Translations under genes and position numbers: made by a program
Virus record (IMG/VR): IMGVR_UViG_3300032087_000329
Coordinates: 1 to 61,352 of that record
Direction: 5' to 3' (one strand)
Length of the DNA stretch: 61,352 nt
Source of the DNA: a virus
Taxonomy: Duplodnaviria; Caudoviricetes
The notes under the pieces: model-generated
The model's database searches: none
What the model saw: the letters and a program-made list of their open reading frames with translations, nothing else
Told to the model about the DNA's origin: nothing
Shown: one piece after another, positions 1 through 55,313 of the stretch
Numbering within the stretch: the first letter of the stretch is position 1
Layout: the number at the start of each line of letters is the position of its first letter

Positions 1-670
1 TGACGCAAACAGTACCACTATTGCCAATAGATGTAATCTTAAGCCAGTCATTATCTAATGTACTTGATTGTGTAATGTTAAAAGTTCTTGAGTTACCAGT
101 TTGATCTAAATAGAAATATCCACCTGCATAACCCGAGCCTGTAAAATTCACTGTATTACTATCACCGTCTACATCTACATAGCTGGTACCACCGTCATAA
201 TTTATATCAAAATCAAAAGTGTTACTATCACCCTGTATAATCCAATCTAAATCTAATGTTGCAGCTAATGCAGTTGTACCATGATCTAAAGTAAAAGTAT
301 TAGAACTTCCTGTTACATCTACATTATAATTTGAATTATCTATACCATAAGTATTTGTTGGATCTCCTTGTATAGTAAAGGTATTACTATCACCATCAAA
401 CTCAAAAAAACCTGTTATAGAGTCACCATAAATATCTCCTAGAAATTTATTAGTGTCACCTATTTGGTTTATATCTAGAGTCAAAGTAAGACCATCTAAG
501 TCTAATGCTGTTAAAGAACCAGCAGAAGAGTTCAAGCCTCCTATGATGTTGCCAGATCCAAGTTGTTCTAAATCAATATTTGCTGTGGCACCTGATTGAT
601 CAACATATATTTCGTTATCAGCAGCAAAAATAAATGTAGAGGTTAGTAATAAACTAATCAGTATTTTCAT
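1..670 (-). CDS. Secreted curlin-like beta-repeat protein (CsgA/CsgB-like), 3' end truncated by the window edge
   Basis: Not in the ORF track; translated by hand from ATG 670: MKILISLLLTSTFIFAADNEIYVDQSG... It has a signal peptide and recurring curlin-like motifs (LEQLGSGN, INQIGDTN, FDGDSN, VTGSSN, IQGDSN, VDGDSN, DQTGNS). The frame stays open to position 2 and overlaps the csgG 3' end. Confidence 0.75.
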   Translation of the reverse strand, partial: MKILISLLLTSTFIFAADNEIYVDQSGATANIDLEQLGSGNIIGGLNSSAGSLTALDLDGLTLTLDINQIGDTNKFLGDIYGDSITGFFEFDGDSNTFTIQGDPTNTYGIDNSNYNVDVTGSSNTFTLDHGTTALAATLDLDWIIQGDSNTFDFDINYDGGTSYVDVDGDSNTVNFTGSGYAGGYFYLDQTGNSRTFNITQSSTLDNDWLKITSIGNSGTVCV

Positions 671-1469
671 TCTGTACCTCCCAGAAACCTTTATCATAAC
701 CTATTTTTACTATTTGCAAAACTGCCTCTTCTATAGCCCTTTGTAAAGCTAACGTTGTTGGTTCATTTTCAGCGTCTCCTGTCTCTATCTCAACCAGTTC
801 TGTTCCTGCTTCAATGAATCTAAAAACATCTTGTGATCTACCATAACTGTACAACTGTTTATTAATTAAAACGTCTATTAAGACTTCTCCAGTAGCTATA
901 GACACCATGCGTAAAGTAATGGTTATATTGTCTACACGGTATTGTTTGCTTGTTCCTATACCTAAATATCTAGCTCCTCTACCACCGCTTTTAATATTTG
1001 TATCATAGCCAATTACGGCACCTTCCATTAAAACTCCTGCAAAAAGTAATGGCATAATAGGTTTGGGTCCATCAGACTTTTCGTTTTGTTCTCTAGCAGA
1101 ACGTATAAGTTGTCTTTCTTTCGTAAGATTATCTAAGCCTACTCTTTCAGCTACTCTAAAAAATTTACCATCAGCAGTATGTTTTAAACTTCTGATTAAT
1201 AGATGACTTGGTGCTTGAGTTACAGCAGTAGAAAACAAAGCAAACTCACTATTGCTTTTACGTTGTCCTGTTTGGTCTGTAAAACTGTTCGGATAAACAG
1301 CAACTACAATAGGAACTTTAGGCTGTTTTACGTTAAGTAATTCTTTAGATTGTATTTCTAAAACACTAGGTGCTGTTTTGCTTTTTACAATAGTGTCATT
1401 TACAGATAATAAACTACAACTAGAAAGCAAAATCGCCAATAGGCAACTGTATCTCGGTAATATTTCCAT
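654..1469 (-). CDS. csgG: Curli secretion channel CsgG (outer-membrane lipoprotein)
   Basis: Lipobox LSSC; motifs VAVY..FTDQTGQRK, FSTAVTQ, ERVGLDNLTKERQLIR, GARYLGIG. Confidence 0.92.
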   Translation of the reverse strand: MEILPRYSCLLAILLSSCSLLSVNDTIVKSKTAPSVLEIQSKELLNVKQPKVPIVVAVYPNSFTDQTGQRKSNSEFALFSTAVTQAPSHLLIRSLKHTADGKFFRVAERVGLDNLTKERQLIRSAREQNEKSDGPKPIMPLLFAGVLMEGAVIGYDTNIKSGGRGARYLGIGTSKQYRVDNITITLRMVSIATGEVLIDVLINKQLYSYGRSQDVFRFIEAGTELVEIETGDAENEPTTLALQRAIEEAVLQIVKIGYDKGFWEVQNENTD

Positions 1470-2443: not shown

Positions 2444-2601
2444 TTCTTTTTAGTTTTTTTAACTCTTTTAGTAGTCCAAGCTTCATTTACATCTGGTGTA
2501 GATTTATCATCAGCTACATAATGACCTTTTTTGTTACGAGCTCTAACTTTTACCTCTTCTGTATTAGTTAAATTACCCCATAATCTTTTAAAAAAACTCA
2601 T
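2440..2601 (-). CDS. Small basic hypothetical protein (53 aa)
   Basis: Hand translation MSFFKRLWGN...RARNKKGHYVADDKSTPDVNEAW...; ATGA overlap with the next gene. Confidence 0.6.
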   Translation of the reverse strand: MSFFKRLWGNLTNTEEVKVRARNKKGHYVADDKSTPDVNEAWTTKRVKKTKKK

Positions 2602-2602
2602 T

Positions 2603-2764
2603 TTACTTATCCTTTGCTTTTAAAACATTTAACGCACACCAATCAATTACTTTGTAAAGTTTTGATAGCCACCAATTACCTTGCGGTGTTGGTGTGATAG
2701 CTGCAATAAATGATGCAATGGCTATTATAGTTGTCACCCATGAAAATATATTTAATATTGTCAT
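2603..2764 (-). CDS. Small membrane protein (53 aa), possibly holin-like
   Basis: Hand translation MTILNIFSWVTTIIAIASFIAAITPTP...; AGGAG RBS upstream. Confidence 0.6.
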   Translation of the reverse strand: MTILNIFSWVTTIIAIASFIAAITPTPQGNWWLSKLYKVIDWCALNVLKAKDK

Positions 2765-2826
2765 TTAGTTTCTCCTTTAGTTTAATCTGCATTTACAGAT
2801 TTAATATTATTATAGTGTAAAAACGG

Positions 2827-3324
2827 TTAATCGCCTATAGCTACGTCAAAAGCTAAAACATATCTATCTATTTTAGGTATTCCTTTTTCAGCTTGATGAT
2901 ATAGCCTTGAATCAAATACATTCCAACAATTTATTTCAGGTCTAATTTTATTACTATCGAAAAACTTAGTACCAAAATTTGTTTTAGTTAAATAAGCTAT
3001 TGCTGATATGTTGTAGTTTTGACAATTATCTGCATGGTTATGCCTTATTGAGTCTATTTCTTCGCCTGCTTTATTTAAAAATACCCAACATTTTTTATGT
3101 AAAATATTTGGTCGATAGCCTAAATATTTAAATACAGTAATATCAATAGATTTATTTAGTTCTTTAAAGTTTTTATATAAAGTTCCATCAGATTGTATTC
3201 TTGCGTGTTCGCATTTTGGATAGTTTTTACAACAAGGATTGTTTTTAATAAAAGTATTAAGTTTTTTTAAGAAAATTTTATTGTTTATATTTTCTAAAAT
3301 ATCACAATAATAAGTTTCATACAT
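2827..3324 (-). CDS. Putative 2OG-Fe(II) oxygenase-fold protein
   Basis: HNH...H...RYVLAFD pattern; last gene of the oxygenase cluster. Confidence 0.55.
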   Translation of the reverse strand: MYETYYCDILENINNKIFLKKLNTFIKNNPCCKNYPKCEHARIQSDGTLYKNFKELNKSIDITVFKYLGYRPNILHKKCWVFLNKAGEEIDSIRHNHADNCQNYNISAIAYLTKTNFGTKFFDSNKIRPEINCWNVFDSRLYHQAEKGIPKIDRYVLAFDVAIGD

Positions 3325-3920
3325 TATTGTTTAAAAAAAGCTGGTAATCCTAACATGGGTCTAGTATCAAATTTATTTTGTTTAGCGTTTTTACCACTCG
3401 CATCATTGTAGTGTAAAAAAACTTGTGCACAATCTTTACCTGTAAATGGCTCACGCCAATGCTCTAAATCGCAACCACGATACATAAGCATATCGCCTGG
3501 ATTTAAGTTTACTTTAATATCAGGTTCTAAATATATTGGCCATGGATCTCCACCTAAGTTCATAGTAGTTGATATTTCGCATGAAGGTCTATCTTTGTGT
3601 CGTTTTAATTCATCACCTTTTTTATAAATTCTTGCGTACGAATAAGTTTCTATTAACGTTACACCTGCTTCTTTTTCCATAATTGGTTTAACTTTTTGTA
3701 ATAAAGTTTCCATAACTATATCTGCATAATGTGAATATGTTTCGGGTATTTGTGGATCATTCCATACACCAAAGTATTCGGTAAACTGGGATATATATTT
3801 TTCATCAAATAAATGTCTTGCCACCATTCTTTTATTTAAAAAATACTGATAACAAAAATCTGCTAATTCTTTTGATACAGCATTTTTAATTATTTGGTAT
3901 TTATCTTGTTTAAAACTCAT
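3324..3920 (-). CDS. 2OG-Fe(II) oxygenase-like protein
   Basis: YSYARIY...RHKDRPSCEIS...HWREPF. Confidence 0.75.
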   Translation of the reverse strand: MSFKQDKYQIIKNAVSKELADFCYQYFLNKRMVARHLFDEKYISQFTEYFGVWNDPQIPETYSHYADIVMETLLQKVKPIMEKEAGVTLIETYSYARIYKKGDELKRHKDRPSCEISTTMNLGGDPWPIYLEPDIKVNLNPGDMLMYRGCDLEHWREPFTGKDCAQVFLHYNDASGKNAKQNKFDTRPMLGLPAFFKQ

Positions 3921-11052: not shown

Positions 11053-11056
11053 GTGT

Positions 11057-11464
11057 TTAGTACTCTTTTACAACTGTTAACACTATAACGTAAGAATCAC
11101 CACTAGCGTGTCCAGTGGTAGTTAGTTTTATGTCACCTGTTTTCCCACTTGCTGCTGCAGTATTTTGCAGACCACCCATGTAGGAAAAATCTATGTCATC
11201 ACTATAGTCAGAATTTAAATCCCAACATATAGTATTTGTACTAGCGTTCCATAATAACTTTACACTCATGCCGAAAGTTGAATAGTTTATTCTACTAACT
11301 TTACAACCTGTACAAGTAGCACCATCAGTACTTCTTGTAGCTAGTGCACTTACATCGACTTTAGTGACAGCTGATTCACCAGTACCATCAGACGTGTTAG
11401 TAAGCTGTATAACAGCTTTTCTATCATCGTCAACAATTGTTGTTGAGGTTACTGCATCTGCCAT
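11057..11464 (-). CDS. Virion structural protein
   Basis: SDGTGESAVTKVDVSAL; downstream of the capsid genes. Confidence 0.55.
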   Translation of the reverse strand: MADAVTSTTIVDDDRKAVIQLTNTSDGTGESAVTKVDVSALATRSTDGATCTGCKVSRINYSTFGMSVKLLWNASTNTICWDLNSDYSDDIDFSYMGGLQNTAAASGKTGDIKLTTTGHASGDSYVIVLTVVKEY

Positions 11465-20617: not shown

Positions 20618-21148
20618 CTAGTCATTAGACTCATCACTTTCAGAAGTTGTTTCCAGAACATTATCTTTGGGCGAGGACTCAACAGCCTCCACAGAATAGC
20701 TAGTTGGTATTGGTAAAATGCCTCCTGACTCCTGGTGTAATTCTTGTATGCGTTTAATAATATCTAGTTTGGTCATATCAGAAGTTTTATTGACTGTTAA
20801 CTCTTTTCTATCTACGTATAATCCTGCTGCTTTTCCTCTATTTATTTCTGCGGTGACGGCAGCACCAAAGGCATTGTTCGAGATTGCTTTGTCTCTTAAC
20901 TGTTCTAGATTATCTAAATGCTTTGATAAAGTTAAAGTTGCTCTGGCTGCTCCTCTGTTCTGGAGTTCTTGAATCCTTGCCTTTACTAATGGCTCATGGT
21001 TCGCCAAGAATGCTCCTGCACGAGCTGCATTGTTGTTTGAATACCCAGCAAGGACGGCTGACTCCTTTAAGCTAGTTCCCGATGCAACGTGTTGGCAGAA
21101 TTTTTCTTGCTTGGGCGTAAGTTTTTTCTCCTTGCGAGTACTATCCAT
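20618..21148 (-). CDS. terS: Terminase small subunit
   Basis: LTPKQEKFC...SAVLAGYS HTH; AEINRGKAAGLY; upstream of terL. Confidence 0.8.
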   Translation of the reverse strand: MDSTRKEKKLTPKQEKFCQHVASGTSLKESAVLAGYSNNNAARAGAFLANHEPLVKARIQELQNRGAARATLTLSKHLDNLEQLRDKAISNNAFGAAVTAEINRGKAAGLYVDRKELTVNKTSDMTKLDIIKRIQELHQESGGILPIPTSYSVEAVESSPKDNVLETTSESDESND

Positions 21149-21267
21149 AATGTCTCATGTCCCTGTGGAGCTATATAAGGCTCTCCAACGTTTAATTCTA
21201 CAATTCTACTACTATCTACCTGCTATCAGCAAGGACTCTCAAACATATCTCATATTAGCTTGTACAA

Positions 21268-21351
21268 CCAATAGGAGTCCAATATCCCTTGCTAATACGC
21301 TGTGATGCCTTCTGCAACAGTCTTGGAGTCAATTCGTATTAGCCTATTAGC
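21268..21351. repeat. Copy 1 of an ~85-bp boxed element; inverted copy at 41275-41359
   Basis: Reverse complement reads GCTAATAGGCTAATACG-N35-CGTATTAGCAAGGGATATTGGACTCCTATT, matching the boxes and spacing at 41275. Confidence 0.65.
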
Positions 21352-21419
21352 TGTTTGACAACTTTTACACAAACCACAACAAAAAATCCATTTCTCATGT
21401 ATAACCAATATTTTTCCTA

Positions 21420-21567
21420 TTCGCATAAGTCGACTGCACTGCGACTTATCGCCGAACTTACCACTGTTATTTCGCATTTCTCGACTGCACTGCGACTCAT
21501 CGTCGAAAGGCAAATCGATATCTTCGGCACTTCGCATTTCTGGACTGCACTGCGACTCATCGCGAAA
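21420..21567. repeat. Three ~32-37-bp imperfect direct repeats with unique spacers
   Basis: TTCGCAT-N5-GACTGCACTGCGACTYATCG at 21420, 21471 and 21531, each followed by CGAA. Confidence 0.85.
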
Positions 21568-21584
21568 CGCCACAATGCACAAAT

Positions 21585-21611
21585 AAAAAATGGCACCTTT
21601 TTAGGTGCCAT
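21585..21611 (-). terminator. Intrinsic terminator
   Basis: TGGCACCT/AGGTGCCA stem plus T-tract on the minus strand, after ORF 21632-22024. Confidence 0.8.
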
Positions 21612-21631
21612 TGTGTGGGGGACAGTATAGT

Positions 21632-22024
21632 TTATAAAACTATACTAAATCTGTCGTTATCTTCGGTAAACGACGAACTACCTATAACAAGGACAGAAAT
21701 TAATTTAGGATTAAAAATATCTTTAATCATTCTTTTAGCAACTTTTTTACCAAGTCTAACATGTACGTGGTTAGCAGATCTATAAACTCTTTCTGCTTCG
21801 CCATTTTCGTTAAAACACTCTTCGTCATAACCACCTAAATCGGTAGAAAGTGAAACAGTGGTACATTTACGCATACCGATAACACAAATAACTTCTTCTT
21901 GTGTTAAATAGATATTATCGCTATTAGTTTCCTGCATTTCTTCAGGATTATCGCCGTATCCTTTAGGCTCCATTCTACTCTGGGTAGCCTTTTGGATCTT
22001 CTGTATTAGTTTTGCTTTATTCAT
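21632..22024 (-). CDS. Early hypothetical protein
   Basis: Has its own promoter, AAGGAG RBS and terminator. Confidence 0.7.
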   Translation of the reverse strand: MNKAKLIQKIQKATQSRMEPKGYGDNPEEMQETNSDNIYLTQEEVICVIGMRKCTTVSLSTDLGGYDEECFNENGEAERVYRSANHVHVRLGKKVAKRMIKDIFNPKLISVLVIGSSSFTEDNDRFSIVL

Positions 22025-22055
22025 TTTTTAGCTCCTTTTTAGTTAATATACAGCT

Positions 22056-22084
22056 ATCATATCACATTCTTTCATAAAAGTAAA
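22056..22084 (-). promoter_or_regulatory. Conserved phage promoter
   Basis: GTCC-TTTACT-N17-TATGAT. Confidence 0.75.
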
Positions 22085-22120
22085 GGACTTTTTAAAAAAT
22101 AATTAAATTAATTTTTACCA

Positions 22121-22158
22121 TTTCGCAGGAGTCCACTGTCCAGTGCAGAACTGCGAAA
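22121..22158 (-). repeat. Diverged inverted fourth copy of the 21420 repeat
   Basis: Reverse complement TTTCGCAGTTCTGCACTGGACAGTGGACTCCTGCGAAA aligns with unit 3; 8-bp terminal inverted repeat. Confidence 0.6.
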
Positions 22159-22176
22159 ACTACAAAAACCACACAC

Positions 22177-22202
22177 AAAAAAATGGGATCCGAAGATCCC
22201 AT
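22177..22202 (-). terminator. Intrinsic terminator (UUCG loop)
   Basis: ATGGGATC-TTCG-GATCCCAT plus T-tract on the minus strand. Confidence 0.85.
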
Positions 22203-22218
22203 AATTGTTTAAGTATTT

Positions 22219-22434
22219 TTAGCTGACACTGGCATTTTCCTCCCATTGGTCCACATAATAACTTGATTTTTTATTCATAGTTACAAGGTCGGAAATATGA
22301 ACTAACTCATGCATTTCTGCTTCTATTAATAAAATATTATCTTTTATTTCAATACTTTCTTTACACTCTTTCAAGTCGTTAGCTAAAATACTTATATTCC
22401 TAACAGCTTCTTCTATTTTTTGTATTCTTTTCAT
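22219..22434 (-). CDS. Early hypothetical protein
   Basis: RBS context AAAAGGAGCTAAAAAATG, the same as at 22024. Confidence 0.65.
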   Translation of the reverse strand: MKRIQKIEEAVRNISILANDLKECKESIEIKDNILLIEAEMHELVHISDLVTMNKKSSYYVDQWEENASVS

Positions 22435-22447
22435 TTTTTAGCTCCTT

Positions 22448-22906
22448 TTATGAAACTTTTTTTGGCTGACCGTATTTGTCGAAGCCAGTGTCGCTATAAG
22501 CAACACTAACTTCAAATTTACGCATACAATCTAAAAGTCTAACATAAACTTTTAACTTCCAATCTGCTGAAGGTTTAAGACCTAAAGCAATCATCATAGT
22601 AATTTCGTGATTAACACCAAGTTCTGTTCTGAAATAAGGGTTAGACGAAACTTTACTAGGAACTTCGTTATAGTTAGATAAATTACCACTAGCATAACGT
22701 TCCATAATTTCTAAATAAGCAAGTAAATAACCATAAGCCTCGTTAAGGTTATTTTCACTTACTTTAGTCACGGCATCGTCTAGTTGTTCTAACATTGCTT
22801 TACCTACATATTTAGGTAAGTAGTTAGAAGACATATAAGATTTTACCATTCTTTTAGACTCTTGGATAGCTCTTATTACGCTGGTTAAAGTATATTTAGT
22901 TTTCAT
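22448..22906 (-). CDS. Early hypothetical protein
   Basis: AAGGAG RBS with a promoter upstream. Confidence 0.7.
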   Translation of the reverse strand: MKTKYTLTSVIRAIQESKRMVKSYMSSNYLPKYVGKAMLEQLDDAVTKVSENNLNEAYGYLLAYLEIMERYASGNLSNYNEVPSKVSSNPYFRTELGVNHEITMMIALGLKPSADWKLKVYVRLLDCMRKFEVSVAYSDTGFDKYGQPKKVS

Positions 22907-22936
22907 ATTTTTCTCCTTTAGTTAAATACAAGACTC

Positions 22937-22965
22937 ATTCTATCTCATGTTTCTAAAAAAGTAAA
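22937..22965 (-). promoter_or_regulatory. Conserved phage promoter
   Basis: CTCC-TTTACT-N17-TAGAAT. Confidence 0.75.
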
Positions 22966-23003
22966 GGAGTTTTTTAAAAAAAGTTAAATTATTTTTATTA
23001 AAT

Positions 23004-23164
23004 GTGGACAGCTTGGGAACAAAAGTATATGAAAACTCTTTTTCAAGCTGTCCACGATGAGTGTGTTAAACGAGATTTAGGAGGACAGGAAATAGGTCTC
23101 GTTCAACTTTACTAATAGCGGAGCACCACTCACAGTGCTCACTGGTATTAACCCTATTCCTGTC
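23004..23164 (-). ncRNA. Candidate structured RNA (double pseudoknot plus hairpin)
   Basis: Five complementary segments in 160 nt, two of them crossing; see findings. Confidence 0.5.
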
Positions 23165-23170
23165 TGAAAC

Positions 23171-23422
23171 TTAATTTTGTTTCATTAAATAAAATTTTGC
23201 TGCTAACGACAAGCAATCTATGTTTGCGTCAGCAATATTTTGTACATCTTCTCTTTTACAATAAGAAAAAGATAAATGCAATTTGTCACGTTCTTCTTTC
23301 GGAAGATCGGCTAGTCGTGTGTCTTTCCACAACGAGCGAAGGTCATCTATTTCGCTAGTTTGTTTTTCTTCTTGCTGTATTTGAAGTTCACCATTAGATA
23401 TATTATGTGTAAATTTTTTCAT
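23171..23422 (-). CDS. Early hypothetical protein
   Basis: AGGAG RBS and its own promoter. Confidence 0.7.
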   Translation of the reverse strand: MKKFTHNISNGELQIQQEEKQTSEIDDLRSLWKDTRLADLPKEERDKLHLSFSYCKREDVQNIADANIDCLSLAAKFYLMKQN

Positions 23423-23451
23423 ATTTTCTCCTATATAATTAATATTCCATT

Positions 23452-23480
23452 ACTCTATCTCATTCTATTACAAAAGTAAA
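23452..23480 (-). promoter_or_regulatory. Conserved phage promoter
   Basis: GTCC-TTTACT-N17-TAGAGT. Confidence 0.65.
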
Positions 23481-23493
23481 GGACTTTATAAAA

Positions 23494-23966
23494 TTTGTGA
23501 CTATTGAGGTCGCTGGTGTAGTTCTCATACCTCGTTTATCTCTAACCTCTCTTTCAAGGTTTTTACAAGAGCTCATCTTATAGCCACAAAACTTAATAAT
23601 CTAACATGCTTTATAGGACAGGTAGCCACATAGTTTGTTTCAAAACATTAACAAAGTTGTACACCTTTGCACTAATCAGGCATAAAGTTCAGGAACTAGT
23701 CGTCTACTTTATGCACCTTTTCAGGCTACTCTTACGACTAACAACGTTCTGCATATTGTTGCGTTTGTAAAAATAAATCTGCCCTATAAAGCATGTTAGA
23801 TATGGCAAGAGTTGTTAACATGTCTGATTTAAGCTACCACGTGAATCTTGTAGCTACCATAATTTAGCTATAACTTACGAAGAGGCTAGAAGCGTCATAT
23901 GGACTTAACTCCGTAAGAGTGTAGTTATCTTTAAGTTTTTTGTCGTTTAACTACCAAGCCGACAAT
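23494..23966 (-). ncRNA. Candidate ~470-nt structured non-coding RNA
   Basis: Directly behind a conserved promoter, no ORF of 60 aa or more contained within it, a 23-bp long-range stem and several nested stems. Confidence 0.55.
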
Positions 23967-23972
23967 AAAGAC

Positions 23973-24001
23973 ATTGTATCTCATGTTTTTAAAAAAGTAA
24001 A
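23973..24001 (-). promoter_or_regulatory. Conserved phage promoter
   Basis: GTCC-TTTACT-N17-TACAAT. Confidence 0.75.
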
Positions 24002-24049
24002 GGACTTTTTTAAATTTATTTAAAATATTTTTTAGAGTACAATATATCC

Positions 24050-24736
24050 ATGGTAGATTTACATCGAATCTATAATTATAGTCCCGATAATATAGCTCCC
24101 GAGCTTGTAAAAGCGACACAAGATTATGTGCTTGTTCCCGAAGAAAACTTTATGCCGACCGAAGAAGTTAAAGCATCGGTTTTAGATTTTATCGAAGAAC
24201 CAGCACCAGATATTATTAGTTTCCCATTTTTAACACCAGAATATTGTGCCGATCTAGTAGATTTGTGCGAAGCAATCGGAAAGTTTGGCCATAGACCAGG
24301 AGACTCTTATCCTGCTCCTGAAATGGATTTAAAAGATATATCACCTTATATAAATACAACACACATCCAAAATATCGAGAAACACATTCTACCAATCGCA
24401 TGTAGTAAATGGGCATTTCCTTTAGTTTGGTTATCATCGGCGTTTGTGGTTAAGCACAGCATGGATGGGCAGATTGGCAATCCTGGATGGCATCATGACG
24501 GTTTGGCAGACATCTCATTGTCAGTCCAACTCAACGACGACTTCGAAGATGGTGGTGTTTATTTTGAAAACCAAAAATTTGGTGCTGGTAATTTACCTGT
24601 TGGTCATGCCATTTTATTTCCCTCGCGAGTGACGCATCGCCACACGGCACTTAATATTACGCAAGGAAAAAGATATTCTTTAACTTATTGGATGAAAGGC
24701 GATATTCCAGAAGATCGATCAGCCAGAACCACGTAA
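24050..24736 (+). CDS. 2OG-Fe(II) oxygenase resembling the lysyl hydroxylase (PLOD) C-terminal domain
   Basis: AFVVKH...WHHD...LNDDFEDGG.YF...GHAILFP..THRH....TQGKRY. Confidence 0.8.
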   Translation: MVDLHRIYNYSPDNIAPELVKATQDYVLVPEENFMPTEEVKASVLDFIEEPAPDIISFPFLTPEYCADLVDLCEAIGKFGHRPGDSYPAPEMDLKDISPYINTTHIQNIEKHILPIACSKWAFPLVWLSSAFVVKHSMDGQIGNPGWHHDGLADISLSVQLNDDFEDGGVYFENQKFGAGNLPVGHAILFPSRVTHRHTALNITQGKRYSLTYWMKGDIPEDRSARTT

Positions 24737-24737
24737 A

Positions 24738-25142
24738 TTATCTCCTTTCTCTAAGCTCACTGGACGAAAATCCATGTTGACGACTGTTATAGTAAATATA
24801 TTTTTTAGGATCATCTTTATACTCATCACGACCAGTGTAAGGAGCATTTTTATACTCTTCCCCGATAATCCTAACATCCCATTGTACACCAGCTAAAATA
24901 TCTAATACGTCCTGCTCAGTTTCGTAAACTAGAACTTCATCAACATATCGACATCCTTTAACTTGTAGTTGTCGTTCTACAATATTTTGTACAGGTTTAT
25001 TTTTCTCTGGTCTATCTAAACTAGGATCTCTCTGTATACAGACTATCATGTAATCGCATACAGTATCTGCTTCTTGTAGCATTAAGACATGCCCAGCGTG
25101 AAATAAATCAAAAGCACCGAATGTTATTCCTATTTTATTCAT
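24738..25142 (-). CDS. Cytidylyltransferase (TagD/glycerol-3-phosphate CT-like)
   Basis: HIGH-type motif FDLFHAGH; C-terminal FSSSELR. Confidence 0.85.
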   Translation of the reverse strand: MNKIGITFGAFDLFHAGHVLMLQEADTVCDYMIVCIQRDPSLDRPEKNKPVQNIVERQLQVKGCRYVDEVLVYETEQDVLDILAGVQWDVRIIGEEYKNAPYTGRDEYKDDPKKYIYYNSRQHGFSSSELRERR

Positions 25143-25305
25143 ATTTTCCTAACATAATGTTAGTGATCTTGTGCTTTTTGACTTTACCATTTAATCGTTT
25201 GTTAGGATTTTTTATAACAACTTTTTTGGCGACTATACCTTGTTTTTCTTTGTTGTGTTTTTTGTAAAACACTTCCTCTTCATGATACAATAGATCTCTA
25301 TTCAT
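25135..25305 (-). CDS. Small basic hypothetical protein (56 aa)
   Basis: Hand translation MNRDLLYHEEEVFYKKH...; overlaps both neighbours. Confidence 0.5.
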   Translation of the reverse strand: MNRDLLYHEEEVFYKKHNKEKQGIVAKKVVIKNPNKRLNGKVKKHKITNIMLGKYE

Positions 25306-25582
25306 TATTTACTCCTTTTGGTGGATTAGTAGATTCAAGATAAAATCTTTTTTCTTCAATTTCTTTATTTACTATTTCCATTAATTCATCCATGTTCATA
25401 GGACCAATATCTTTGTCCGTCCATACACATAGTTTTATCATGGCTCGTTTTTTATGTTTTCCGTTTAGTCTTTCAACCTCTCTTTTGCCGCAATCCTCGC
25501 ACTCCAGGACACTCTGTAAGACTCCGTTTTTAGTAATCGTAAAACTATTACTAATATTAGTGCACGGACAATCTGTACTCAT
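25298..25582 (-). CDS. Hypothetical protein with Cys pairs
   Basis: CPC...CEDC. Confidence 0.55.
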   Translation of the reverse strand: MSTDCPCTNISNSFTITKNGVLQSVLECEDCGKREVERLNGKHKKRAMIKLCVWTDKDIGPMNMDELMEIVNKEIEEKRFYLESTNPPKGVNNE

Positions 25583-25851
25583 GTTCTAAAGTTCCTAGAG
25601 TTTGCGTTGGCTTTTGTAGTTGGCTCGTAATCGTAAACTTTTACATCGCCTAGATTACCAACCCAGCCTATCATCATATCGGCTGTATCACGAACAATCC
25701 AACCACCCATGCGTTCACTAGAATATTCCTCGCTTACAATCTTATCGTACGTAGGAATTAAATGTTTAGCTTTTTTATAAAACTTTTTCTGCATCTCTTC
25801 GTAAGAGTTTTCTATCCATGGTCTTGATTTTATTTCTTTATCCATGTCCAT
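25579..25851 (-). CDS. Hypothetical protein
   Basis: Coupled ORF with GGAG RBS. Confidence 0.6.
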   Translation of the reverse strand: MDMDKEIKSRPWIENSYEEMQKKFYKKAKHLIPTYDKIVSEEYSSERMGGWIVRDTADMMIGWVGNLGDVKVYDYEPTTKANANSRNFRT

Positions 25852-26003
25852 ACTCCGTGTCCTTGATAACTATCTTTTGTATAACCACGTTTCTGCATTT
25901 CTACGTCTACGTAATCGTCGATACTACCTTTTTTGCCGTTAAGTTCCCAACTACGTTTACCATCTTGATAAGCGTAGTATGATTCTAGTTTTTCGTAGTT
26001 CAT
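25830..26003 (-). CDS. Small hypothetical protein (57 aa)
   Basis: Hand translation MNYEKLESYYAYQDGKRSWEL...; AGGAG RBS and upstream promoter. Confidence 0.6.
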   Translation of the reverse strand: MNYEKLESYYAYQDGKRSWELNGKKGSIDDYVDVEMQKRGYTKDSYQGHGVWTWIKK

Positions 26004-26035
26004 AATTTTTCTCCTAAATAATTAATTACTCTCAT

Positions 26036-26064
26036 ATCATAATCTACTTTTTTCTAAAAGTAAA
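26036..26064 (-). promoter_or_regulatory. Conserved phage promoter
   Basis: GTCC-TTTACT-N17-TATGAT. Confidence 0.7.
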
Positions 26065-26259
26065 GGACTTTGTATCATGGTCGTAATTAGGAGTTTGCTC
26101 GTCAGGCATACCATTAGGATATTTCATAGCATGGAGATACATTTCGTAATCTTCTTTAGACAATATTTTCTCTAACTTGTTAAACGGAGTGGAGAGTGGT
26201 AAGCTATATTTTTGTTTAATATAGCTCATAATACTCCTTGGTGCGTCGTTCCTAGCCAT
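26044..26259 (-). CDS. Hypothetical protein
   Basis: Coupled ORF with GAGG RBS. Confidence 0.55.
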   Translation of the reverse strand: MARNDAPRSIMSYIKQKYSLPLSTPFNKLEKILSKEDYEMYLHAMKYPNGMPDEQTPNYDHDTKSFTFRKK

Positions 26260-26417
26260 TAAATAACCTCTCTTTCAGCATTACTAAAATGTTTACCATC
26301 GTTTTCAGAATAAAACACTTTTGGGTTTTTTATTTTACTCAAATCTAGAGACTCGAGTAAACTATCTCTTTCTTCTTCTGACTCACATTTTATTGTGATG
26401 TTGAATGTGTCAGCCAT
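26259..26417 (-). CDS. Small hypothetical protein (52 aa)
   Basis: Hand translation MADTFNITIKCESEEERD...; TAATG coupling at both ends. Confidence 0.55.
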   Translation of the reverse strand: MADTFNITIKCESEEERDSLLESLDLSKIKNPKVFYSENDGKHFSNAEREVI

Positions 26418-26800
26418 TATGCCACCTCTCTTTTAGTTATGTTAATGTATCCCCACTTACGAAAATAATTGAGGTCTGCTTCGCAAATACCAAGTTCTTT
26501 TTTAAGAATATCTACAGGACGATTTTTAGAACCTATTCCCTCGACCATATCTTTTATGTTAGTAGAACGTGGGATCCTAATACCATTGCGATACTCGTTA
26601 GATTGATTAACAATGTCATTAGGTGCGATGCCGTAGGTTTTTGAAGTTTTTGCTTTACTTCTAGGGGTTTTACGTTTTACATGTTCTGACAATAGTTGTA
26701 ATGCTTTTTCAGCATTACTATTACCATTCACAGCTTTACGTAAAGTTTTGAATACCGTGGATAAGTTTTTATCGTACGGATTTAGATTATTATTTTCCAT
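26417..26800 (-). CDS. Basic hypothetical protein
   Basis: AAGGAG RBS and its own promoter. Confidence 0.65.
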   Translation of the reverse strand: MENNNLNPYDKNLSTVFKTLRKAVNGNSNAEKALQLLSEHVKRKTPRSKAKTSKTYGIAPNDIVNQSNEYRNGIRIPRSTNIKDMVEGIGSKNRPVDILKKELGICEADLNYFRKWGYINITKREVA

Positions 26801-26833
26801 AGTTTTTCTCCTTTCTTAAACTAATCTAGAATC

Positions 26834-26862
26834 AGTCTATCTTATTTCTACAATAAAGTAAA
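26834..26862 (-). promoter_or_regulatory. Conserved phage promoter
   Basis: GTCC-TTTACT-N17-TAGACT. Confidence 0.65.
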
Positions 26863-26865
26863 GGA

Positions 26866-27246
26866 CTATTTTAAAAAAGTTTCAATTAATAGTTCCCAAT
26901 CATATGGCTTTTTTAGACAAAGTTCAGGAGTCAAACGTAAACCGTCATCGGCAACTTGTCTAGCATCTTCACCTTTATATAGATATATTTCTGCTGCAGG
27001 AGTTCTAACTAGAACAAAACATTTACCACCACTCATAGATCTTTTAATTAACCATCCAACTTGTTCTGGTCGAAGACCAACTTTTTTACCAGCGTTGACA
27101 ACTTTTAATTCCACCCAAAACTCTGTTCCTTCGCAACATGCATTAAAGTCAGGAATGCCTCTACCTGTGCCTCCTGTTTCTATTCTTTGTATATGCATGT
27201 TGCTCAGGTTTTTATTTACAAGAGCCCAGAATGCACTCTCTTTCAA
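26866..27246 (-). CDS. VRR-NUC-like PD-(D/E)XK nuclease/resolvase
   Basis: QRIE...GIPD...FWVELK...LRPEQ..W. Confidence 0.8.
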   Translation of the reverse strand: MKESAFWALVNKNLSNMHIQRIETGGTGRGIPDFNACCEGTEFWVELKVVNAGKKVGLRPEQVGWLIKRSMSGGKCFVLVRTPAAEIYLYKGEDARQVADDGLRLTPELCLKKPYDWELLIETFLK

Positions 27247-27533
27247 AGAAATCTATTTTTTACTTTCTTGATTCCTTTAGTTTCGAGCCAATCTCTATAT
27301 TCTTCGTTAGTGAGATGTTTTTTCTCTTGTTCTACTTGTAGAGCGTCATAATAATGACCCTCTCCTATTTTGCATCTTCGTATAATCTGATGCACCCTTT
27401 GTTTAGAAATGTTAAATTTATCACCAATGTTTTCCATAGTTAAACCTTGTTTATACATATCAAACATTTCTTTATTTCTTTTTAAGAAGTTGGTAGCCAA
27501 CTCTTCGTTTATACCTTGCATTAATTGCTCCAA
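27243..27533 (-). CDS. HTH DNA-binding protein (sigma70 region 4-like)
   Basis: GLTMENIGDKFNISKQRVHQII. Confidence 0.75.
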   Translation of the reverse strand: MEQLMQGINEELATNFLKRNKEMFDMYKQGLTMENIGDKFNISKQRVHQIIRRCKIGEGHYYDALQVEQEKKHLTNEEYRDWLETKGIKKVKNRFL

Positions 27534-54503: not shown

Positions 54504-55313
54504 ATGAGAGATAACCAGAAACGTAAAGTCTATAACTGGGAAGACAATCTTATACCTACCACTAATGATCTATCTAAACAAGAATGTATACACATTGTTG
54601 ATCAGTTAAATAAGATTTATAAATGTAACGGCAGAATAAAGTTTGTTAATAGACACCAACATGCTCATGGTCACAGTAATGGTTTAATAACTATACCAAC
54701 TGGATGGGCAATGTGTTGGAAAATATTAATCCACGAATATGCTCATGTTTTAACTTTTCAGAAATATGGTTGGCGTGGGATAGAAGCACATGGTAAAGAG
54801 TTTGTCACCACATACTGCATATTACTTAAAAATTTCCACCCAAACAAACCTACGTATAGTAAACTAGCAAAATCTCTAAATGAACGTAACATAGATTTTG
54901 TAAGTTTTGATAACGATCTAGAGAAAAAAGCTAGAAGACGTAAAGTATCTTTAGATAATTTTAAAGAAAATAAATCATTCGATGAACTAACTACAACTAG
55001 AGTTTCTGTCACACCTGATGGTTTGAAACGTTATTACCTTAGAAAAACTAGAATAGATAAAATATGTTTTGTTATACAAGCTATAAAACAATCTGAATAT
55101 GCAACTACGTTGCCTTTAGAAAAAGTTTTGTGTGTGTTTAAACGTGGGTTTATACCTTTTTGGGAGGGTAAGTGCAGAAACGCTTCTTTAACTGAAAAAT
55201 TAAATAACGAAGTTAAACCGTTACTACGTACTATGCCTAAAGTGACTTTAGCAGATCTTAAATATATCGACAAACATAAACGAGGAATAAAACTAATTAC
55301 GCCCAAACTTTAG
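54504..55313 (+). CDS. HEXXH zincin metalloprotease-like protein (SprT-like)
   Basis: ILIHEYAH...HGKEF; AAGGAG RBS; own promoter. Confidence 0.75.
   Translation: MRDNQKRKVYNWEDNLIPTTNDLSKQECIHIVDQLNKIYKCNGRIKFVNRHQHAHGHSNGLITIPTGWAMCWKILIHEYAHVLTFQKYGWRGIEAHGKEFVTTYCILLKNFHPNKPTYSKLAKSLNERNIDFVSFDNDLEKKARRRKVSLDNFKENKSFDELTTTRVSVTPDGLKRYYLRKTRIDKICFVIQAIKQSEYATTLPLEKVLCVFKRGFIPFWEGKCRNASLTEKLNNEVKPLLRTMPKVTLADLKYIDKHKRGIKLITPKL

Follow-up and report, generated by a model that had tools for sequence, protein, structure and literature searches.

What is encoded between positions 23494 and 23966 of IMG/VR record IMGVR_UViG_3300032087_000329, a complete, densely coding virus record of 61,352 bp (hereafter the window)? 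The genes of this record lie mainly on the minus strand and, by a greedy open reading frame (ORF) call, the stretch is among the very few non-coding ones of the genome. A first-pass annotation, made from the sequence alone, had proposed that it specifies a novel structured phage RNA of about 470 nucleotides (nt). The comparative evidence (covariation, a strand-specific excess of G-U pairs, no conserved ORF, and no Rfam match) agrees with this proposal and identifies the region as the predicted gene of a structured non-coding RNA on the minus strand. That the RNA represents a real RNA-level family is considered very probable. A further reading, to which a probability of about 0.4 is given, is that it belongs to a new class of self-assembling “ornate” RNAs, which would form RNA-only assemblies through two palindromic kissing loops, often together with a second structured RNA.

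Conserved fold and strand of the RNA

A consensus fold of 66 pairs in eight helices was obtained with RNAalifold from 11 distinct full-length sequences, and compensatory changes were found in 21 of the pairs, which is the outcome of the homologue and covariation check that the first-pass annotation had suggested. Overall, 98.7% of the cells were paired compared with 32.9–44.8% in slid controls, in which the pairing partners were displaced by 1–3 columns, and the 21 compensatory pairs compare with 1–6 in the controls (observed values reached by 0 of 500 shuffles). The analysis of 24 distinct cores from four clades, which were grouped by eye with no tree behind them, gave 33 pairs with 98.6% of the cells paired (37.0–56.3% in slid controls) and nine compensatory pairs (1–4 in slid controls). 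Read on the minus strand, the cells of the 66-pair consensus consist of 631 Watson–Crick, 77 G-U, 1 A-C, and 8 other combinations. The ratio of 77 G-U to one A-C indicates that pairing is kept only on the minus strand, the strand that the promoter reads, and extends to the whole family the earlier remark that the mismatches in the two longest stems are G-U on that strand. Folding energy alone cannot pick the strand because both strands fold better than shuffled sequences (minus strand, 479 nt, z = −3.37, 0 of 100 shuffles as good; plus strand of the region, z = −3.90). The signal is strong in the core alone (23597–23803, minus strand, z = −5.68, 0 of 200 shuffles as good), and the 5′ 104 nt alone are unexceptional (z = −0.14, 88 of 200 shuffles as good).

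The conserved unit (23597–23965, minus strand) has two parts, a 5′ domain of 103 nt and a core that is closed by a 23-bp stem and measures about 205 nt (table 1). Most of the RNA proposed in the first-pass annotation is therefore retained, and positions 23494–23596 are not: this 3′ tail is common only to the window and to one close relative, contig G001 (97% identity), and is absent from the two other closest relatives (G002 and G003). In G001, the tail sequence follows a second RNA element and a terminator. The 11-bp stem noted within the tail (23494–23504 with 23580–23590) exists as part of a 16-nt repeat (23489–23504 with 23580–23595, 81% complementary). A second stretch confined to the window and G001, the insertion between the 5′ domain and the core, is missing from G002, G003, and all other clades, and one RNA-library contig joins across it.

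Within the core, helices P1 (23 bp) and P1a (6 bp) close a multi-helix junction that carries the arms P2, P3, and P4 and a variable arm P5, the length of which ranges from a few nucleotides in the window and in contig L053 to about 190 nt in G002. The junction contains approximately 45 near-invariant bases, with the strands GAGUAGYCUGAAARGG, CUGAUURGUGCAA, GUYAAUG, and CAAACUAUGUGGCUACCUG. The arms of P1, which had been recognized from the window alone and are 96% complementary there, form 22 consensus pairs, seven of them with compensatory changes, and 99.6% of the cells are paired (11 sequences); at least 16 bp are kept in clade 4. Helix P1a (GUAGYC/GGCUAC, 96.5% of the cells paired in 24 cores) and the 9-bp stem of P3 (99.3% paired), both pointed out previously, are part of the consensus fold. 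A compensatory form of P1a (GCAGUC/GACUGC) is seen by eye in two cores (L100 and L107), and one pair of P3 changes from G-C to A-U in 5 of 11 sequences. The P3 loop is deleted in G002, and in many members of clade 4 it is replaced by GAUA-GCAA/GUAA-UAUC. Compensatory changes are present in 5 of 10 pairs of the P2 arm helices, where the P2b stem is GAAAC/GUUUC in clade 4 and ACAGC/GCUGU in the other clades, and in 3 of 6 pairs of the P4 stem (24 cores).

The 5′ domain is kept in clades 1–3. Its helix CUUAC/GUAAG carries compensatory changes in 4 of 5 pairs, and for a pairing between a loop and downstream sequence (GUAGUUA/UAACUAC in the window form) coordinated changes are seen by eye in clades 2 and 3. 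RNAalifold applied to the 5′ domain alone yielded little because the MAFFT alignment offset the clades by 1–3 columns. The two short hairpins listed previously, AGCTAC/GTAGCT in the insertion and TTGTCG/CGACAA at the 5′ end, can be read directly in the sequence. A suggested long-range pseudoknot (23728–23736 with 23912–23920) was not borne out: the two 9-mers are present but contain no compensatory pairs, and the 71.7% of paired cells equals what is expected by chance (shuffle mean 71.6%, this value being reached by 325 of 500 shuffles). Instead, covariation links these 5′ bases to a local partner.

Table 1. Coordinates of the RNA, its parts, and associated elements (window positions unless a contig is named; pairing partners and motifs under Remarks)
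Feature	Position	Strand	Remarks
Sigma-70-type promoter	23973–24001	minus	−35 TTTACT (23996–24001), 17-nt spacer, −10 TACAAT (23973–23978); 9 of 12 matches
5′ domain	23863–23965	minus	terminal hairpin UUGUCG...CGACAA (23940–23965) and long irregular hairpin with CAUAU pentaloop
Lineage-specific insertion	23804–23862	minus	AGCUAC/GUAGCU hairpin; window and G001 only
P1 5′ arm	23779–23801	minus	23-bp closing stem with one G-U; pairs with 23599–23621
P2 arm	23738–23766	minus	outer helix and hairpin P2b
P1a 5′ side	23724–23729	minus	RNA GUAGCC; pairs with 23622–23627
P3 hairpin	23680–23714	minus	9-bp stem, 17-nt loop; base flanked by invariant CUGAAARGG and CUGAUURG
P4 hairpin	23651–23670	minus	self-complementary apical hexamer UGUACA (23658–23663)
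P1a 3′ side and P1 3′ arm	23599–23627	minus	23622–23627 (RNA GGCUAC) and 23599–23621
3′ tail	23494–23596	minus	contains 11-bp stem; no terminator-like site
Second promoter-like repeat copy	23456–23496	minus	precedes 83-aa ORF 23171–23422 (AGGAGA, then ATG at 23422)
Second element, L024	2331–2945	plus
Second element, L053	3629–4241	minus
Second element, L059	8562–9238	minus
Second element, L050	1528–2164	plus

The RNA was compared with Rfam 15, the families of which include GOLLD, ROOL, OLE, 6S, tmRNA, RNase P, introns, ribozymes, riboswitches, and IMES motifs. No match was found at gathering score in the window or 16 related loci, nor at E ≤ 1 on seven loci, and at E ≤ 10 positions 23300–24150 matched only mir-316 (16.7 bits compared with 80) and PYLIS_3 (14.3 compared with 38), which is chance level. 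The earlier failure to recognize the RNA as tmRNA, RNase P, 6S, or an intron agrees with this result, and according to ARAGORN neither the window nor any of 19 related loci holds a tRNA or tmRNA. A retron msr-msd RNA was considered and rejected: the neighbors are an 83-aa ORF and an oxygenase-like gene, with no reverse transcriptase gene directly downstream, and no reverse transcriptase is among the 25 families listed of the 49 that were found in 68 window proteins. Searches of the literature on pelagiphage (including HTVC023P), SAR11-phage, and marine structured RNAs yielded no account of it. The words non-coding, noncoding, and intergenic are absent from the available parts of an 80-genome survey (PMC9599517) and of the paper on phage HTVC027P (PMC12753301), and the terms ncRNA and sRNA are absent from the latter as well.

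Genomic setting and distribution

The terminase and the DNA polymerase A of the window are 52–58% and 48–53% identical, respectively, to those of HTVC023P, HTVC027P, and two related records, and on these identities the window phage is placed as an uncultured relative of the HTVC023P-type Pelagibacter phages. The conserved promoter proposed in the first-pass annotation was found as a TTTACT–17 nt–TACAAT site that points into a stretch with no ORF of 60 aa or more, and from its spacing the RNA is expected to start near A 23966. The promoter is part of a 41-nt repeat whose other copy (23456–23496) is read as serving the 83-aa gene and as marking the downstream boundary of the non-coding unit. One promoter-like repeat copy lies upstream of each of the small genes between 21 and 27 kb. 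The core 15-mer of the repeat (AAAGTAAAGGACTTT) is present in eight copies in the window (≤2 mismatches) compared with 0.56 expected, and 0 of 100 shuffles reach eight. The motif positions in plus-strand coordinates are 22077, 22958, 23473, 23994, 26057, 26855, and 37617, with 54437 on the opposite strand, where one copy faces the plus-strand gene 54504–55313; in minus-strand reading the repeat contains AAAGTCCTTTACTTT, its −35 element is TTTACT, and it precedes small genes. A generic sigma-70 scan of positions 21000–27500 displayed no overall enrichment (15 sites compared with 23.9 in shuffles), and a site scan found no terminator-like site within 23494–23966. Early expression of the RNA is suggested by the promoter type and by the position among small genes. 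Two other gaps without a plausible ORF were left by the greedy ORF call, 11053–11363 (311 nt) and 22907–23170 (264 nt), the latter with another promoter copy.

The RNA region is flanked by the 83-aa ORF, which has no Pfam family, and by a 2OG-Fe(II) oxygenase-like gene on the opposite strand. In more distant phages that carry this neighboring gene, an ordinary ORF lies behind the same promoter, which indicates that the RNA occupies a gene-cassette slot. The oxygenase-like gene (228 aa, plus strand) starts with an ATG at 24050, only 6 nt past a TACAAT at 24038–24043 and with no visible Shine–Dalgarno sequence; the same arrangement is found in G001 and G003, and the mRNA may be leaderless. Elsewhere in the window (654–1469 and other genes) there are curli secretion genes of the CsgG- and CsgF-like kinds, a thymidylate-synthase-like gene, a domain of the 5-hmdU DNA kinase type, and a protein with CHASE2 and adenylate/guanylate cyclase domains. 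Secretion and DNA-hypermodification genes are mentioned for the HTVC023P-type phages in the available part of the survey text (PMC9599517).

Homologues were identified in at least 30 other IMG/VR contigs and in 13 metagenome contigs. An exact 19-mer from the closing stem matched G001–G003, among which the region is mosaic and which all contain the first 103 nt past the promoter. G001 has two cores in tandem and an insertion of 580 nt; in RNA sense (contig L024) the outer 5′ arm comes first and is followed by core b, by an inner arm that is degenerate, by core a, and by the 3′ arm, and ten bases between the cores are N in the stored data. With two tandem cores, the closing stem of G001 could form in two registers. 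A degenerate P3-hairpin pattern added four viral contigs (10 of the 18 viral stretches matched were chance) and the 13 metagenome contigs, all of which are family members, and as an exact-pattern scan of 185,579 prokaryote species genomes it gave no match. A P1a-junction pattern found 31 new viral loci, 20 of which are matched by R1, a covariance model of the inner core (131 positions); the remaining 11 lack an R1 match at E ≤ 0.01, some matches lying at contig ends. A third pattern added three further members, six of its nine new loci being chance matches.

The four clades differ in promoters and neighbors. Clade 1 comprises the window, G001–G003, and L056. Clade 2 contains contigs such as L036 and L059, with a different promoter (TTGCAT–17 nt–TATAAT, by eye) and with proteins 45–75% identical to those of genes at the other end of the window (local tblastn), and clade 3 consists of L053 and L060, from a more distant phage. 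A promoter of its own precedes the RNA unit in clades 1–3. The L053 unit begins with this promoter and continues through the 5′ domain, the core, and a second structured element to an intrinsic terminator, without an ORF. Clade 4 holds compact cores of 133–187 nt, often between two ORFs, in phages of 52–54 kb with a GP88-family gene; the smallest member (L067) has 133 nt and a 16-bp stem. Many clade-4 copies (L072, L076, L070, L096, and others) have a conserved non-coding leader, located about 130 nt upstream of the core (TAGACTGATTTTTCCACATCTGCGTGGG...GCTAGTTT...AAACTAGC, with hairpins), and other copies directly follow the GP88-family gene.

A single R1 match was found in the window and one each in G004, G005, and G006, and window DNA matches the RNA region only at itself and at its two arms. 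The RNA has the same sense as the neighboring genes in every context examined. No R1 match was found in HTVC023P, HTVC027P, 023Pt_psg01, DSL-LC04, HTVC309P, or HTVC035P by a route that works, since it detects the RNA in G004–G006. A blastn search of cultured-phage records gave no match for window positions 23000–24500 or for the RNA block of clade 2, and the clade-4 sequence matched only in its GP88 coding part, in HTVC309P and HTVC035P; in these two phages the next gene follows directly after the GP88 gene.

In G001 and clades 2 and 3, a second non-coding element of about 560–620 nt lies directly 3′ of the core (table 1). RNAalifold applied to six sequences gave 125 pairs, 34 with compensatory changes. 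The element is closed by a 12-bp stem, ends in an intrinsic terminator in L024 and L053, and has no Rfam match. It is missing from the window, the deletion beginning exactly where the P1 3′ arm ends and reaching up to the 3′ tail. A different sequence, about 800 nt long, lies after the core in L057 (approximately 2590–3400 in RNA sense), L058, and L062; it contains conserved blocks, lacks sense ORFs of at least 60 aa, and matched nothing in Rfam at E ≤ 1.

Self-complementary loops and alternative explanations

The apical hexamer of P4 is self-complementary in several different forms (UGUACA, UUGCAA, UUCGAA, and UUAUAA; a variant found later, L103, has AUAUAUAA). The two adjacent central bases of the loop are AU in 6, UA in 5, CG in 4, GC in 4, and other in 5 of 24 sequences, with a covariation score of 0.609 compared with 0.150 (0 of 500 shuffles as high). 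Six of eight distinct P4 loops contain an exact palindrome of at least 6 nt, compared with approximately 4.7% expected for random 8-nt loops. The P2b loop is likewise palindromic in most members (UUUGCAAA, UUGCAA, or UUUAAA). According to the available part of a recent study, covarying adjacent loop bases support intermolecular pairs, pairing within the chain being sterically precluded, and this argument was applied to loops L9.3 of OLE and L21a of GOLLD (PMC12286853). Since adjacent bases cannot pair within one hairpin, the covariation in P4 is likewise read as intermolecular. Kissing of P2b with P4 within one molecule was considered and rejected: it fits only members with UUGCAA in both loops and is at odds with the loops of the window, clade 2, and clade 4 (by eye).

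The RNA itself would be the product, a stand-alone folded RNA, a reading that rests on the promoter of its own and the lack of an ORF in clades 1–3 and on the terminator at the end of the L053 unit. Copies would bind each other by kissing contacts of the self-complementary P4 loop and, in most members, of the P2b loop as well, giving dimers or larger assemblies as in the OLE, ROOL, and GOLLD RNAs. The long, perfect P1 helix would most likely clamp the fold. With about two helical turns, a length kept by compensatory change, it may also be where host RNase III frees the core from longer transcripts, a step that would be most important for clade 4 and for those units of clades 2 and 3 that contain two RNAs; P1 is long enough for such a substrate (at least about 20 bp of near-perfect duplex). 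We judge the chance that this self-association mechanism is right to be slightly short of even.

Several observations weigh against it. The P2b loop of the window itself is degenerate (AUAUGCAG) and not palindromic, the P4 loop of G003 is not self-complementary, and four clade-4 sequences contain GUCUGAC, which could fold back as 2 bp with a triloop. AT-rich palindromes such as UUUAAA and UUAUAA are likelier by chance in AT-rich DNA. The outer sequence of P1 (AUGYUUUA...UAAAGCAU) is conserved beyond what pairing needs, and the frequent start of the clade-4 core at the stop codon of the GP88-family gene fits a cis-acting role too. Contigs of four RNA-labelled libraries from four studies hold parts or variants of the core, which represents presence and not transcription; neither the ends nor the strand of a transcript can be read from them, and the genes on either side have similar depth in run X1. 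No meaning attaches to the uncovered parts, and the other runs, with shares below 0.2, were left out of account. Finally, the six reference phages without the RNA show that it is dispensable for the phage group.

The conserved core might instead be a cis-acting intercistronic element, that is, an RNase III processing, stability, or translation-control site with no function of its own once cut. Such a role would suit clade 4, in which the 5′ arm lies directly against the stop codon that ends the GP88-family ORF upstream and the 3′ arm ends about 12 nt before the Shine–Dalgarno sequence (AAGGAG) of the next ORF, with which the P1 3′ arm (GUCCUUUU) could pair (by eye). It would also suit the nearly perfect duplex of 22–29 bp formed by P1 and P1a and the lack of a terminator-like site in the window, where transcription may continue into the 83-aa gene. 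However, a simple processing hairpin would need neither some 45 invariant junction bases nor four to five arms and palindromic loops, the units of clades 1–3 have their own promoter and no ORF (that of L053 ending at a terminator), and the downstream genes vary among contexts; we regard this explanation as unlikely. A new class of self-cleaving ribozyme, cutting the phage transcripts at or near the core, would account for the compact conserved junction with variable peripheral arms, the constant sense orientation inside transcribed regions, the location between other RNA domains or ORFs, and the tandem duplication in G001, and small ribozymes are common in phage intergenic regions. It would leave the palindromic loops unexplained. 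No Rfam ribozyme model matches even at E ≤ 10, the minimal member (133 nt with a 16-bp stem) is large for this kind of RNA, and nothing points to a cleavage site, which makes a ribozyme quite improbable. Invariant junction bases closed by a P1 helix, with the clade-4 3′ arm adjoining a Shine–Dalgarno sequence, also recall the aptamer of a ligand-sensing riboswitch that controls the downstream gene. This assignment appears very unlikely because the downstream context is inconstant: the window has a separate promoter and the 83-aa ORF there, clades 2 and 3 have the second RNA element, and clade 4 has small ORFs of various kinds. In addition, no Rfam riboswitch matches, and the P1 helices of riboswitches are usually far shorter and less conserved in sequence.

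Two further explanations require no functional RNA. Terminal inverted repeats of 23 bp around approximately 160 bp, conserved outer arm sequences, a patchy distribution among related phages with differing neighborhoods, and sharp module boundaries at the arms could indicate an element acting at the DNA level, either an insertion resembling a miniature inverted-repeat transposable element (MITE) or a palindromic replication or recombination site. The 77 G-U and one A-C cells argue otherwise, in that pairing is kept on one strand only. Compensatory changes also occur in at least five short internal helices outside the terminal repeats, and the element is found as one copy per genome in the same orientation to transcription in every context examined, leaving a DNA-level role only a slim chance. 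The idea that the region is a decayed or very short protein-coding sequence, which the first-pass annotation had named as an alternative, can draw on short ORFs (38, 34, and 27 aa on the minus strand, 54 and 28 aa on the plus strand), none of which is kept in the three closest relatives. The indels break the frames, not being multiples of three (e.g., 4 + 2 + 11 = 17 nt lost in the P3 loop), and the antisense ORFs at related loci read as low-complexity junk; a coding remnant is hardly credible.

Comparison with known RNAs and significance

By its architecture and its kissing-loop signature, the RNA, which matches no Rfam family, is best placed as a new class beside the large “ornate” phage RNAs. 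GOLLD, ROOL, and OLE are large ornate bacterial or phage RNAs that form RNA-only homo-oligomers, and GOLLD and ROOL were recently shown to build RNA-only cages (both from the available part of PMC12286853). Like these, the RNA is phage-encoded, elaborately structured, and non-coding, it belongs in related phages to a non-coding block of 1–1.5 kb, and its loop palindromes have covarying central bases as in L9.3 of OLE and L21a of GOLLD, the evidence here coming from sequence only. It differs from them in the absence of an Rfam model match, in its much smaller core (about 130–350 nt), and in its host range, which is that of marine phages related to Pelagibacter phages. Unlike GOLLD and ROOL, which often lie beside tRNA genes in phages and prophages, it has no tRNA nearby.

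The RNA shares with the prohead RNA of phi29 that it is a promoter-driven phage RNA. In phi29, loop–loop pairing between copies forms a ring, the loops pairing with a different loop of the next copy and not being palindromes. The RNA described here differs in having no Rfam match, and the window phage, which has a terminase large subunit, need not have a packaging RNA as phi29 does. As in the RNase III stems of the T7 early genes and of the 16S and 23S rRNA precursors, a near-perfect duplex of 22–29 bp brackets a folded RNA, and in relatives two structured RNAs with long stems of their own lie in one transcription unit. The T7 sites have no conserved junction and loops, whereas the RNA enclosed here does, and its cleavage is a proposal. 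Correia-type and MITE repeats also have terminal inverted repeats that give a long RNA hairpin when transcribed, but the present element is single-copy, has one orientation, pairs strand-specifically, and contains covarying internal helices. A set of 8,495 candidate structured RNAs of 29–151 bases has been predicted from IMG/VR intergenic regions, that is, from the same data source and with the same kind of evidence, covariation in phage intergenic DNA (PMC10690425, available part). Single hairpins of the RNA could be among these candidates; given their lengths, the full architecture of at least 370 nt is not described in that part of the source.

Very few classes of large structured phage RNAs that build RNA-only assemblies are known. 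The present RNA, carried by relatives of the HTVC023P-type Pelagibacter phages, shares with them the comparative signature of intermolecular pairing. If the self-assembly proposed above is true, many of these relatives would carry a two-RNA operon of 1–1.5 kb without a protein product, the core being co-transcribed with an unrelated structured RNA of about 560 nt, and RNA quaternary assemblies would be a general phage strategy that extends beyond Lactobacillales and rumen phages. The short core forms (130–200 nt) are small enough for direct biophysical and cryo-electron microscopy work, for which the observed covariation supplies ready-made mutants. The carriers would be uncultured phages related to the most abundant ones known for SAR11, the dominant bacteria of the ocean, and the RNA would add a non-protein component to host takeover by phages of these streamlined ocean bacteria.

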